A stretch of DNA of 16,219 nucleotides from Candidatus Sysuimicrobiota bacterium. Lineage in GTDB: Bacteria > Sysuimicrobiota > Sysuimicrobiia > Sysuimicrobiales > Sysuimicrobiaceae. Below are positions 9,001-15,000 of this stretch, one piece after another (within the stretch, counting starts at the first letter, position 1; every line of letters starts with the position of its first letter). Position numbers: made by a program. The stretch is from positions 1 through 16,219 of the forward strand of contig PSLI01000041.1 of the NCBI GenBank assembly GCA_040289515.1, in the 5' to 3' direction.

Positions 9001-12000
9001 GTCCCTTTCGCTGGAAAACCGGGTGCCGGCTCAAGTGGACCACCACGTACAGGTCGCCCCGCGGCCCACCGTGCTGGCCCGCCTCCCCCTCCCCCGGGAC
9101 CCGCAGGGTGGTCCCCTCCTCCGCGCCAGGCGGAATCCGCACCGTGACCGTGCGCTGCGCTTCCACCCGCCCCGCCCCGCCGCACCGGGTGCAAGGGTTG
9201 ACCAGCACCGCACCCTCGCCCCCGCACCGCGGACAGGTGGTGATCTGCGTGAAGTGGCCGAAGGCGGTCCTGCGGGAGTACCGCAGCTGCCCCGTGCCGC
9301 GGCACGCGGGGCAGTCCTGTACCCCGTCGCCCCGCTCCGTGCCGGTCCCGAAACACGAAGCGCAGGTCTCCAGCCGGGTGACTTCCACCGAGCGTTCCGC
9401 GCCCCGTGCCGCCTCTTCCAACGTTACCTCCAGGTCGTACCGCAAATCGGCGCCCCTCTGTGGGCCCCGCTCCCGCCGGCGCACAGGCTCGCCGAAGAAC
9501 GCCTCGAACAAATCGTCGAAGGGGCTGCGGAAGTCTGTCGGTCCGGGGGCCGGGGCTGCCCGCCGGCCCAGGCGGTCGTACTCTGCGCGCTTCTGCGGGT
9601 CCGACAGCACCTGGTAGGCCTCGTTGATTTCCTTAAACCGCTCCTCCGCCTGCGGGTCGTCCTTGCGGACGTCCGGGTGGTACTCCCGGGCCAGACGGCG
9701 GTACGCCGCCTTGATCTCCTCCAGCGAGGCGTCCCGTGGGACGTTCAGAATCTCGTAGTAGTCGCGCGCCATGGCTGTGCTTTTCCCCGCGTCGCCGATC
9801 CCCGACTTCCGGCGGTGTCGCCCTGCGGAGTCGGGGAGTCCACCTAAGTAAGAAGGGTACCCCAAACAAGGGAACGGTGTCCGGGGTCGGGTCCCTCCCG
9901 CGGCGTCAGACCACGCGGCTCAGGGTGTCGGAAAGAGTCTGGGCCAGGTACCGCACCAGGGCGATGGTGCGGGCGTACGGCATGCGGGTGGGCCCGACCA
10001 CCCCCACCACGCCTACGATCCGGCCCCGCACCCGGTACGCGGCAGCCACCACGCTGCAACCCCGGATGTCGTCCACGGGGTTCTCGCGCCCGATCCGCAC
10101 GTGCACGTCGGCGGGTGCGGGCAGGAGCACGTCCCGCAGGACCTCCTCCCGGTCCAGGGCGGCCAGCACGGGCCGGGCCCGCCGCACGTCCTGGAACTCC
10201 GGCTGCTTGAGGATGTTGGACACGCCCTCCACAAAGAACCGCACCCCCGTGCGGAGGCCCCCGTAGCGGCGCAGGTGCTCCACCACCGCGACCACCAGGT
10301 CGCGTGCCACCAGGTCGCCATGCCCCAGCCGCTCCACCTCGGAGTCGGAGAGGTCAGAGATGGTCCGGCCCGCGAGGGCCTGGGTGACCAGTTGGGAGAC
10401 GCGCCGCAGCTCGTCCTCCGTGGCCGGCCGGTGCAGGCGCACCACCCGCTGCTCCACAGCTCCTTCCGTCACCACCACCATCAGGGCCCGGTCCTCCACC
10501 AGGGGGATCAGGTGCAGGCGGCGCAGCTGGCGGGGTCCGCCGGACGTGCTGGCCACCGAGGGGTAGTCGGTGAGGGCCGCCAGAGTCTGCGCGGCTTCCG
10601 TGAGGGCCTCTTCCGGGTCGTCCCTGCCCTGTAGGCGCCGGCGGATCCGCTCCCGCTCTGTGGAGCTGAGCCAGGAGTCGCGGGCGAAGAGAAGGTGACC
10701 CGCCATCAGCCGATCCACGTACACGCGGTATGCACGGTCGGTGGGCACGCGGCCTGCCGAGGTGTGGGGCTGGTACAGGTACCCCATCTCCGTCAGCGCA
10801 TGCATCCCATTCCGGATGGTTGCGGCGCTGACGCCGAGCCCGTATCGGTGGCAGACGGCCTCGGAGGCCACCGGTTCCGCCCGGGCCACGTACTCCTGGA
10901 TCACAGCCCAGAGGATCTGCTGCTTGCGGGCGTCCAGCTTGTGCGCCAGCATGACCTAGCACTCCGGACAGTAGAGTGCTAATCCCACGGCCACCGTAAC
11001 ACCGGTGGATCCGGCCGGTCAAGCGCGGCTGGAAGCGGGTCTGCGCCGGAACACACCCAGCACCACCCCCAGCTCCTCCGTTCGGGCCACCGCGCTGGTG
11101 ACCAGGTAGGCTAGCCCTCCGGCTCCGAGAGCGAGCGCGAGCTGCACCAACTGGCCCCGTAGCCGCTGGGGATCCACCCAAAGCCCGGCTCCCGTGGCGG
11201 CTGCCCACGCCGCCAGCCCGCACAGCAGCGCCGCGGCAGCGGCGCGCAGCACGGTGCGCACGGCCCGGCGCCCCTCTAAAGACCCCAACCGCCGGCGCGC
11301 CAGCCACAGCAGGGCGGCCACGTTGGCGGTGGACACCGCGGAGGTGGCCAGGGCGATGCCCACGTGTCCCCACCAGCGCATGAACACCCAGTCCAGGACG
11401 GCGTTCAGGAGAATCGTGGCGGCCCCCACGCGCACCGGGGTGGACATGTCGTGCAGAGCGTAAAACAGCCGGGTGATCACCGTATAGCACGCCACGGAAA
11501 CCAAACCCACCCCGTACGCGGCCACCGCCGCCGCCACCGCCCGCGTGGCCTCCGGGCTGAAGTTGTACCGCTCGAACAGCACCCGCACCAGCAGGTCAGG
11601 AACCGCCACGTACACAGCCAGGACCGGGGCGGTGGCAAACACCGCGGCCCGCAACCCCAGGGATGCGGTGCGGCGCAGGGACTCCAGGTCCCCGGTCCCC
11701 GCGTGCCGGGATAAATGCGGGAAGATGGCGGTGGCGATGGAGATGGCGAAGAAGCCGACCGGCGCCTGCACCACCTCGTACGCGTAGTCCAGCACCGCCA
11801 CCGCGTTCACGGACCCCCCGGGCAGGTAGGAGGCGAACACCCTGTCCACGTAGCTGTTCACCTCCACCACCGCCAGCCCCAGCATGGCGGGCAGGGCCAG
11901 GCGTACCACCTCCCGCAGGGCCGGGTGGGTCAGCTCCAGCCGAGGTCGGTATCGCAGGCCCGCCCGCACCGCCGCGGGCACCTGCACGAGGCACTGGGCC

Positions 12001-15000
12001 GCGGTCCCCAGCACCCACGCGAATGCCAAGCCCCGGATACCCCAACGCGGAGCCAGAGCCACGGAGGCGGCGATGATCACCGCGTTAAACAGCAGGGGGG
12101 CCAGAGCGGGCACGGTGAACTGGTGGTGCGACTGCAGGTAGCCGGTGAGGAACAGCGACATTCCCAAAAAGAACATGGCCACGAAGAGGATGCGGGTGAG
12201 CTCCGTAGCCAGCCCCACCAGGAGCGGCAAGCCCGAAAACCCCGGCGCGGCCACGGCGACCAGCCACGGGGCTACCAGCTGCCCTGCGGCCACCATGCCC
12301 AGCCCCACCACGAAGACCAGGGTGAGCAGGTTGTTCACCACGCGCTCGGTCTCCCGGGGATCGCCCCGCGCCAGGTAACCAGTGATGGTGGGAATGAACA
12401 CGATGCTGAGGGTGCCCCCCAGAACCAGCCGCTGCACGAAGAAGGGCACCGAGTATGCCACCACGTACGCGGCCTTGGCGTCCCCGGCGCCGAACACGGC
12501 TGCCACCACTGCCTCCCGTACCACCCCGAGAAGCCGGCTGGCCACGGCCGCACCCGCCATGATCCCCGCTGCCCGAGCGATCTGCCTGGGGCTGCCGGAC
12601 CCTGGGGGAGGTGCGGACGCGCCGTGCAAGGGAAAACACCACCTCCGGCTGCGGTCAGCTGGCGATATGGTACAATGCGCGCGGACCGTCGGTGAGAGGA
12701 GGCCGAGAAGGGCGTGGCGAAAGAGAGCCGTTCTGCACAGAAGCGGTTGCGGCAGACCATCAAACGCACCCTGCGCAACCGGGCGGTGAAATCCAGGATC
12801 AAGACCCTCACCAAGAAGGCCCGGGCCACCCGCGACCCGCAGGTGCTGCGCGAGGCGGTGAAGGCCATCGACAAGGCCGCGGCCAAGGGGATCCTCCACC
12901 CCAACACCGCCGCTCGCAGGAAAAGCCGCCTGATGCGGGCCGTGCAGCCATCGGGTTAGGCCGTCCCGCCCCCGCCGCCGGTCTGGCCGCACAGGCGCAC
13001 CACCAGCTGCTGGACCAGCACCTCCGGGGCCCCCGCGGACGTCTTCAGCTGCAGGTCGGTTCGCTCGATGTGCTGGTACAGCTGCGCCAGGCGCTCGCTG
13101 CCCAGGCGGCGCGCCTGCTCGCGGTACGCCCCGAACCGCCACGCCCGGTTACCCAGCACGCGGCGCACCTCCGCAGCTCCCGCATGCTGGATCGACAGCG
13201 CGTGCGCGTACACCAAGGCCCGAAAGTGGGACGCCAGCAGCGCCACCAGGGCCACAGGGTTCTCCCGCTGCAGCAGCCGGTGCAGGACCCGCAACGCCTG
13301 CGCGGCCTCGCCCCGGGCCACCGCGTCCGTCAGGGCGAACACGGACACCTCGGCACCGTGCGAGGCCACGGCCTCCACGTGGGCGAGCTCCACGGTGGCA
13401 TCCTCGTGCGCGTAGGCCACCAGCTTTTCCACCTCCGACGCGAGCGCCTGCAGGTCCGTGCCCACCGCGGCCCCCAGGGCCCGGGCCGCATCGCCGGTGA
13501 TACGCTTCCCCAGCTCCCGCACGCGGGAGGCTACCCACGCCACCGCACGCCGGTCGTCTACCCGGTCGGCCTCGACCACCTCCCCCACCCTCTGCACCAC
13601 GTTCCACAGGCGGCGCCGCCGATCTAGGGAAGCCGCCTCCAACACCACTACGGACGCCGGAGGGCCTGCTTCCAGGTGAGAGGCCAGCCGCTCCTGCGCG
13701 GGAGCCGGCATGCGGTGGACCTCCTGGACCACCACCACCCGAGCGGGCCCAAAGAAGGGCAGCGTGTCCAGGCGGGTGAGGAGCTCGAAGACGTCCAGCT
13801 CGCCCGCGTCCAGCCGATCCAGGTTCAGGCTTCTGTCCGCGGCCGAAAGGTGCGCGCTCACGATCCGATCCACCGCCTGGCGACGCAGCCAGGCCTCCTC
13901 GCCCACCACCAGGTACACCCGCGCCGCGCGGCCCCTCATTCCCCCTCCCGCAGCCGCCGCAGCTCGTCCCGCACCCGCGCCCGCCACGGGTTCGGTACCA
14001 GGCGCACCTGCATCCGCACGCCGCAGCCCTCCCGGACGCCCAGGGGCAGGGCCGAGCGTGGCAGGAAGGCTGCCTGACCCCCCTGGAGGACCAGGACGGC
14101 TACCTCGTCCTCCAACCGGTCCACCACGCCGTACAGCACCACGGCGGCTTGCTGGTCCGCACCCATAGCGTCCTCCCGTCCGTGCGGATGGTCACCGCGC
14201 CGTCACGGTCCGTCCGGTACAGGGGAATCCCCAGGCGCGCGTACCGGGCCACGACCTCCCGGTGCGGGTGGCCGTAAGGGTTTGCCGCCTTCACGGACAG
14301 AACCGCCAGCTGCGGGGACACCGCTCTGAGAAAAGGCTCCGAGCTGCTGGTGCGGCTGCCCTGGTGGGGCACCTTCAGCACCTCCGCCCCAAGATCCTCC
14401 CCCGCGGCCACCAGCGCGCCCTCCGCGCCCGCCTCCACGTCTCCCGGAAACAGGAACCGCACCCGGCCGTAGCGCAGCAGCACCACCACGGAGTTCTCGT
14501 TGACCGCGGAAGCTCCCTCCCACAGGACGGCAGGCCACAGCACGCGAACCTCCACCTCGCCCAGCAGGATCCGCAGGCCCCGGCGAGCCAGCCGGTACGG
14601 GATGCGCCTGGCCCGCACCGTGTGCAGGAACTCCGCGTACACGGGCGTGGGGTGCGGGTACCCGCTGTCCAGCACCAGGCCAGCCCCGAAGCGGCGCAAG
14701 GCGTGCACCAGCCCGACCAGATGGTCCGCGTGCGGGTGGCTCAGCACGGCCACATCTACCCTTCCGCCCTGCCTGGCCAGATAGCCCACCAGGGGCTGCG
14801 CCTCCGGCCCGCCGTCCAGGACCAGCCGGTGGCCATGGGGGCTTTGAACCACGATGGCGTCACCTTGCCCCACGTCCAGGAACACCACCTCTGTGTGCGC
14901 GGGCGCGGGGAGCAGCCGCACCCACACGGCCACGGCTAAGGCCAGTGTTGCGGCTACCACCGCCCGGGTCGGGCGCAACCATCCGCGGCATGCGGCCACC

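Follow-up and report, generated by a model that had tools for sequence, protein, structure and literature searches.

The window analysed here is a stretch of 16,219 nucleotides that carries both anchors of the lepA-hemW site of Bacillota: upstream rpsT, encoding ribosomal protein S20 (12714..12959, plus strand; TIGR00029 70.2 bits, cut-off 33), and downstream the heat-shock repressor gene hrcA (9906..10952, minus strand; TIGR00331 266 bits, cut-off 197.2). Between them lies murJ, encoding the lipid II flippase (11019..~12614, minus strand, start codon uncertain; TIGR01695 340 bits, cut-off 235.55). A preliminary description had reported this gene order at 9906..12959; the coordinates hold, and each gene scored at or over its NCBIfam cut-off. 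The sequence leaves a murJ-hrcA spacer of 66 bases (10953..11018, minus strand), which could accommodate neither lepA (1.8 kb) nor hemW (1.1 kb), and tblastn with LepA and HemW queries found no remnant of either gene on the window's contig. The anchors are flanked on one side by holA, encoding DNA polymerase III delta (12956..13987, minus strand; TIGR01128 233.9 bits), and comEC (14100..16172, minus strand; TIGR00361 215.8 bits). Directly after hrcA comes dnaJ (8678..9772, minus strand; TIGR02349 413 bits), followed by the remainder of the conserved cluster, prmA and rsmE (7051..8681, minus strand; TIGR00406 174 bits, just below the cut-off of 183, and TIGR00046 130 bits, respectively). The grpE-dnaK pair is found on a separate contig (C36), away from hrcA-dnaJ. 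Just before the hrcA start, an inverted repeat (10956..10982) was the one match, with one mismatch, to the CIRCE consensus (0.01 expected by chance). Similar sites occur in 32 of 40 loci of the phylum, and the putative hrcA operator is retained in the window.

The HrcA protein of the window is 79% identical to that of a named Ca. Sysuimicrobiota member, and in a single-gene HrcA tree it forms one clade with the named CSP1-3/Ca. Sysuimicrobiota members (support 1.0). From this we infer that the window belongs to CSP1-3/Sysuimicrobiota. L030, which is labelled Armatimonadota, also groups inside CSP1-3/Sysuimicrobiota.

The closest known arrangement is the lepA-hemW(hemN)-hrcA-grpE-dnaK-dnaJ operon of B. 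subtilis and its relatives (PMC13495026; loci L039 and L043), in which lepA and hemW are co-transcribed. What the two arrangements share is the CIRCE site and the gene order comEC-holA-rpsT ... hrcA-dnaJ-prmA-rsmE, but the phylum lacks lepA-hemW anywhere in the genome, has relocated grpE-dnaK, and has murJ preceding hrcA. All 18 Bacillota lepA loci had hemW adjacent, and 12 of these continued to hrcA within the fetched stretch. The adjacency of hrcA and murJ previously noted across the order holds in all 40 fetched loci (of 91 with hrcA), with all seven families represented, and none has lepA or hemW between the two genes. Three of the murJ-hrcA gaps are wider (1259, 1474, and 2723 bases) and contain what look by eye like membrane-protein frames; tblastn at E 1e-4 found no lepA remnant in them. 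We did not see murJ before lepA in the outgroup (18 Bacillota loci and two short loci), and murJ may simply have been a neighbour of old and not the replacement of lepA.

Profile searches confirmed the earlier claim that LepA (EF4) is absent from this genome and throughout the sampled phylum. No protein of the 94 phylum genomes, which all belong to a single GTDB order with seven families, exceeded the TIGR01393 cut-off (533.9 bits; top phylum score 200.9 bits), nor did any in the 54 good genomes (completeness of at least 90% and contamination of at most 5%), while LepA was recovered in 10/10 control bacteria. The absence of the LepA C-terminal domain, first reported for 49 genomes, was widened to 0/94 with PF06421 (best phylum score 19.3 bits, cut-off 29.7), and our own profile of the last 200 LepA residues matched only EF-G and EF-G2 in the genome G000. 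The highest-scoring LepA-like proteins of the phylum were BipA or EF-G. We rejected the TIGR01393 matches at 130-200 bits as divergent LepA; these proteins are BipA, and seven of the eight top matches checked, of ~610 residues, gave 788-928 bits with TIGR01394 (cut-off 757.3), the eighth being a split gene. True LepA fragments of only ~130 residues score 256-271 bits with TIGR01393, above the phylum maximum.

Two routes of escape could still make the absence an artefact: lepA may lie on DNA that was never binned or assembled, or it may have diverged past detection. All 94 genomes are MAGs, none of them closed. However, hrcA, as a positive control, was found in 91 of the 94, where completeness alone predicts about 84, and in 54/54 good genomes. 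Unbinned metagenome contigs tell the same story, with murJ leading to hrcA without lepA in 68/68 informative cases and lepA on 0/80 contigs of the phylum. Were incompleteness to hide lepA in 94/94 genomes, the log10 chance would be about -106 (independence assumed). A divergent LepA lacking its C-terminal domain, the loophole named in the preliminary description, would keep its G domain, so an inventory of G domains tests it. In the five best genomes every translation-factor G domain was assigned to EF-G, EF-G2, EF-Tu, IF2, SelB, or Der (the SelB piece of G081 through sequence likeness alone), the remaining 89 genomes being judged by TIGR01393 score. G001, which includes a contig of 3.15 Mb, has only EF-G, EF-G2, EF-Tu, IF2, and SelB as translation-factor GTPases. 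We therefore regard an artefact as extremely improbable.

The loss goes beyond the one gene claimed initially. HemW (TIGR00539, cut-off 205.4) was found in 1/94 phylum genomes and 0/54 good genomes, the sole exception (G051) being on a 3.7-kb contig with no cluster gene adjacent. BipA is missing from 70 of the 94 genomes and RsgA from 61, including 36 of the 54 good ones. Present in only 24/94 genomes, BipA was rejected as a stand-in for LepA. RsgA was likewise rejected as a general stand-in, since it occurs in 33/94 genomes and in 0/23 of family f5, and LepA, BipA, and RsgA are jointly absent from 25 of the 54 good genomes. The BipA proteins that do occur represent three or more sequence types with no relation to one another, a pattern that suggests regain by transfer. 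The pattern differs from genome reduction: phylum assemblies span 1.5-5.3 Mb, and Era, Der, ObgE, RbfA, RimM, RimP, HflX, and bS21 are all present in G000. RbfA was found in five of five other genomes tested, as was YchF in five of five genomes tested. Loss of bS21 was rejected as a correlate of LepA loss, the protein being present (one genome, G000), and loss of ABC-F proteins is patchy, with one in 3/5 genomes.

A second EF-G of the EF-G2 type might have taken over LepA's role on immature 70S particles. An EF-G2-type gene is present in G000 and a second EF-G-like gene in five other genomes tested, but the protein is a full-length, ordinary EF-G2 without the LepA C-terminal domain. Many bacteria with EF-G paralogues retain LepA. 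Such paralogues are common among bacteria (PMC4342817), and we consider a takeover very unlikely.

The account that we find fairly probable is a single deletion of lepA-hemW on the stem of the phylum, never regained and tolerated without a dedicated replacement. In the common ancestor of the sampled CSP1-3/Sysuimicrobiota, one event would have excised the two adjacent genes from the interval separating rpsT/murJ from hrcA; with all 94 genomes in one order, we infer one stem loss instead of many, although the loss could predate the phylum. Subunits of 30S would then mature by a default route through Era, RbfA, RimM, and RimP, presumably at the price of slower or less exact maturation of the head domain. 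Cells could bear such a loss since LepA does no more than accelerate the late steps of 30S maturation. In E. coli, deletion of lepA has no obvious defect, a lepA rsgA double mutant doubles in 31 min as opposed to 26 min (PMC4245954), and most 30S particles lacking LepA attain a near-mature state (PMC12787274). These data depict LepA as an efficiency factor and not a requirement, so that selection to retain it was probably weak in a slow-growing lineage derived from hot springs; thermophilic ancestry and predicted slow growth have been described for the phylum (PMC11962464). The same relaxation may later have permitted gains and losses of RsgA and BipA, and a dedicated replacement protein, none of which was seen, would not have been needed. 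However, LepA is retained by Thermus and Thermotoga, which served as controls, and by 91.5% of the genomes of slow-growing CPR (PMC12641178, supplement), so heat or slow growth alone is insufficient to explain the loss.

The ribosome itself may also have changed such that the LepA-dependent step became unneeded. Seven 16S columns (E. coli numbering 370/391, 718, 970, 1075/1082, and 1231) are fixed in 10/10 phylum sequences and differ from 10/10 LepA-bearing references. A stiffer 30S head, which would make LepA and then RsgA redundant, might arise from replacement of U950.G1231 by a U-A pair together with C970A, of U1075-A1082 by C-G, and of C370-G391 by G-C in h15. Four of these positions (970, 1231, 1075, and 1082) fall within the 3' domain thought to be stabilised by LepA (PMC12787274), and the frequent lack of RsgA in good genomes fits this idea. 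Head-region changes fixed in the phylum thus leave room for ribosome-side adaptation. However, the Rfam consensus gives these columns in lower case, as variable across bacteria; such signatures occur in any deep clade, and our ten references are few and mostly from Bacillota. No convergent 16S change was seen between the two LepA-less groups: four LepA-less Bacillota sequences (G031 was left out for masked bases) share none of 718, 970, 1075/1082, and 1231, and only two of the four share 370/391. We consider the rRNA explanation unlikely.

LepA loss is not confined to CSP1-3/Sysuimicrobiota. The preliminary description had placed LepA in five of five neighbours, from Armatimonadota, Vulcanimicrobiota, Deinococcota, Chloroflexota, and Bacillota; this stood for the Deinococcota and Bacillota controls, and a Veillonellaceae and a Margulisbacteria record also carry it, but three genomes (Bacillota) of a set of five lack it. 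In one Bacillota class LepA was absent from 42 of 121 sampled genomes, with none in the 12 genomes of one order, and HemW was lost along with it: HemW was over its cut-off in 19/20 LepA-bearing but only 1/44 LepA-less genomes. LepA status changes five times on the HrcA tree for Bacillota, whose backbone is unresolved and from which 17 of 72 rows were dropped, and a single LepA-less clade was not rejected (p-AU 0.46), so as few as two lepA-hemW losses (one in Bacillota, one in the phylum) would suffice. With 16S, a single clade of both LepA-less groups was weakly rejected (p-AU 0.044).

This co-occurrence could be functional, LepA and HemW acting in one pathway such that neither is of use once its partner has gone. 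That both are missing together in the two groups fits, as does their status as near-universal single-copy markers (lepA is flagged in BAC120). A nucleic-acid link has also been suggested for HemW (PMC13495026). However, a single deletion removes both neighbouring genes, the HrcA tree does not reject a single Bacillota loss, and the Fisher p overstates the association among related genomes that are not independent. Moreover, G161 keeps hemW without lepA, and in E. coli the two are unlinked, lepA adjoining lepB, rnc, and era. A shared pathway is therefore quite unlikely. We also hold it improbable that late 30S maturation was remodelled through an rRNA-stabilised head to be independent of LepA, RsgA, and BipA, with the repeated lepA-hemW co-loss in the phylum and the Bacillota class revealing a shared role of HemW, so far unrecognised and linked to the ribosome.

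LepA has been described as found in all bacteria (PMC4245954) and is present in 99.4% of non-CPR genomes in the supplement of PMC12641178, the latter a data set in which, as the preliminary description had left open, the phylum has no match and is absent. The literature searched held no report of LepA loss in CSP1-3/Sysuimicrobiota or of bac120 markers missing from CSP1-3, and no paper on lepA loss described lineage-level loss in its title or the opening of its abstract. The CPR/Patescibacteria likewise form a deep lineage that dropped GTPases thought indispensable or universal, but they lose Der, ObgE, and Era as well as RbfA, keeping LepA and mostly BipA (PMC12641178), whereas the uncultured, free-living phylum, which retains those four factors in G000, lacks LepA and mostly BipA and RsgA. 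The Mollicutes minimal translation set similarly tells which factors persist when many genes are lost, yet LepA is in all Mollicutes examined (PMC4014445) and in none of the phylum. In E. coli, strains deleted for lepA alone or together with rsgA are also viable and indicate that LepA and RsgA share part of their work late in the maturation of 30S (PMC4245954, PMC12787274), but in the phylum the loss is fixed.

Near-universal LepA whose deletion barely matters in the laboratory is a paradox, and its loss on two or more occasions in free-living lineages provides natural knockouts for asking why it is otherwise almost never lost, with the accompanying changes and losses readable from genomes. 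Enrichments of the phylum exist (PMC11604079), so ribosome structures should be obtainable in which LepA-less changes can be read. That LepA, RsgA, and BipA can all be missing from one genome sets a limit on how few GTPases ribosome assembly requires. Since bipA and hemW are BAC120 markers alongside lepA, as many as three standard markers are missing from this phylum.

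LepA (EF4) has been lost throughout the phylum Sysuimicrobiota (CSP1-3), whose members are free-living bacteria. As the preliminary description had proposed, the full-length model TIGR01393 passed its cut-off in all 10 bacterial controls but in none of the 94 genomes, nor in any of the 54 good ones (at least 90% complete, at most 5% contaminated). The LepA_C domain (PF06421) never passed its cut-off either (0/94, top score 19.3 bits). Without two genomes flagged as unpublished (G017, G025), the tallies are 0/92 and 0/52. The usual neighbour of lepA, hrcA, was found in 91 of the 94 genomes and in all 54 good ones; completeness alone predicts about 84 finds. 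The highest TIGR01393 scores (up to 200.9 bits) were rejected as LepA, since the source proteins, of about 610 residues, are BipA: all eight tested were BipA (seven over the cut-off, one a split gene), and the remaining top matches fall in the same places as BipA matches. Genuine LepA fragments of about 130 residues reach 256–271 bits, so a broken lepA copy would stand out. A check for divergent LepA assigned all GTP_EFTU domains in five well-assembled genomes, including G001 with its 3.15-Mb contig, to EF-G, EF-G2, EF-Tu, IF2, SelB or Der, and tblastn of the genome under study with three genuine LepA proteins returned only IF2 and two EF-Gs.

LepA has been termed universal or almost universal (PMC4342817) and is reported in all Mollicutes (PMC4014445) and in 99.37% of non-CPR genomes (PMC12641178). 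Term searches of the text and supplement of the latter paper gave no match for CSP1-3, Sysuimicrob or HRBIN32, and similar searches found no mention of lepA in the main texts of two papers on the phylum (PMC11962464, PMC11604079). Twelve of the 14 supplements of PMC11962464 gave no match; the other two and the PMC11604079 supplement may tabulate the absence. Full-text searches, judged from their listings and covering few subscription journals, found no published report of the loss. We infer that the GTDB marker tables must hold it implicitly. The finding adds a case to a known type of event, the loss of a near-universal translation GTPase, and involves no new molecule.

Gene order shows what left the cluster. 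In the Bacillota class used for comparison, lepA and hemW adjoin in all 18 lepA loci fetched, 12 of which continue into hrcA; L039 and L043 read rpsT ... lepA-hemW-hrcA-grpE-dnaK-dnaJ. The two genes are described within one operon in B. subtilis (PMC13495026). The assembly that holds the window spans 1.99 Mb over 76 contigs and is 96.7% complete; the gene order in the window is comEC-holA-rpsT (opposite strand)-murJ-hrcA-dnaJ-prmA-rsmE. Its 66-base spacer between the end of murJ and the start of hrcA contains a CIRCE-like repeat (10956–10982). Among its closest named relatives is a record ranked by NCBI in Ca. Sysuimicrobiota, to which the window's HrcA is 79% identical and with which the window groups; on this basis we assign it to CSP1-3/Sysuimicrobiota. 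The other 93 genomes are all listed in the window's own order, in seven families. The murJ placement noted earlier recurs in the phylum: murJ precedes hrcA in all 40 loci fetched from the 91, covering all seven families, with gaps of 89–548 bases in 37 and of 1259–2723 bases in three, which contain neither lepA nor hemW. Among the best 80 of 141 murJ loci on unbinned metagenome contigs, 68 reach hrcA, 10 of the other 12 end too early, and none carries lepA or hemW. HemW was found in one of 94 genomes and no good one, on a 3.7-kb contig without any cluster gene, and this copy could stem from contamination or gene transfer. The pair has therefore been removed from both cluster and genome.

Other features of the region were observed. 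Genes resembling carA-carB (carbamoyl-phosphate synthase, recognised by eye in the translated sequence) lie at 2611–6943 between rsmE and miaB; in the Bacillota counterpart rsmE adjoins a MiaB-like gene. The grpE-dnaK pair is removed from between hrcA and dnaJ in every phylum locus extending to dnaJ (window 8678–10952), and in the genome under study lies on contig C36 (10794–14198) beside a second, shorter DnaJ-like gene. In nine genomes, mostly of family f4, hrcA matched as two pieces or half only (G045, G046, G049, G050, G055, G056, G057, G081, G022); an insert, frameshifts or split genes are candidates.

The loss is not confined to the phylum but is paralleled in uncultured Bacillota, where about one third of the sampled class, including one entire order, also lacks LepA and HemW. 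In three loci (L036, L037, L040) rpsT and hrcA lie about 2 kb apart without lepA-hemW between them; their genomes have no LepA, and their order has LepA_C in 0/12 and hrcA in 10/12. An even sample of the class, which also includes a record titled Thermaerobacter, has LepA at E<=1e-70 in 79/121 genomes, although these come without completeness values and some absences may be gaps. Of the LepA-less genomes, 22 of them classed as such by complement, 33 were tested for hrcA and 31 have it. None of 38 hrcA loci fetched from such genomes holds lepA, and in 27 of them spoIIP or rpsT lies no more than 1.4 kb from hrcA. In this arrangement, seen among the LepA-less members of the sampled genomes (G094–G096, G099–G218; loci L036, L037, L040, L212–L249), spoIIP or rpsT leads directly into hrcA. 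A single LepA-less clade within Bacillota is not rejected (p-AU 0.46), and 16S weakly rejects one clade uniting it with the phylum (p-AU 0.044); we defend a minimum of two losses. HemW passed its cut-off in 1/44 LepA-less versus 19/20 LepA-bearing genomes of the class. A shared function of LepA and HemW is a possible reason for this joint loss, but gene adjacency accounts for the pattern with two events.

Within the phylum, the loss is wider than the LepA loss first described, taking in HemW and often BipA and RsgA. BipA occurs in 24/94 genomes, with families f1 and f4 lacking it altogether, as at least three types (L009–L016, L289–L296) that are 48–54% identical to one another and do not form one group in a small FastTree tree, which suggests that these copies are regains. 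In G071 BipA is split across two frames. RsgA occurs in 33/94 genomes (0/23 in family f5), and LepA, BipA and RsgA are all missing from 41/94, G001 among them, and from 25/54 good genomes (24/52 without the unpublished two). RF3 was not found in the genome under study or five others. The former retains Era, Der, ObgE, RbfA, RimM, RimP, HflX, EF-P and bS21; RbfA and YchF were each present in 5/5 phylum genomes examined, and a second EF-G is retained in it and the others examined. In tblastn, E. coli HemN, Hfq and EpmB had no match in the genome under study and YihA only a weak one; the ABC-F linker domain was absent from it and from G092.

Beyond the observed absence, gene order and retained factors, we propose as the likeliest reading one stem deletion of lepA-hemW in the phylum's ancestor, which would have been tolerated because LepA would only speed a step that also proceeds unaided. 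E. coli without LepA is reported to grow normally, and lepA loss in an rsgA mutant to lengthen doubling from 26 to 31 min (PMC4245954); lepA-less 30S particles are described as mostly near mature with a loose head (PMC12787274). The phylum's inferred ancestors are described as aquatic thermophiles and its soil families as predicted slow growers (PMC11962464). LepA is kept in our Thermus and Thermotoga controls and reportedly in 91.5% of CPR genomes (PMC12641178), which speaks against a simple ecological cause. The main rival to a tolerated deletion is a ribosome-side change that made LepA dispensable: seven 16S columns, four in the head region, are fixed in 10/10 phylum sequences against 10/10 LepA-bearing references, yet Rfam marks these columns as variable, and the set does not recur in the LepA-less Bacillota.

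In one 16S sequence (L271, from G027), the called stretch lacks the usual anti-Shine-Dalgarno tail at its 3' end, probably at an assembly edge. In the genome under study selB (contig C64, 10623–11346; L020) looks broken, with pieces in different frames and much of the middle unmatched, and a tRNA-Sec is called despite this. The selB frame ends early in G081, and SelB is whole in G001, G040 and G048.
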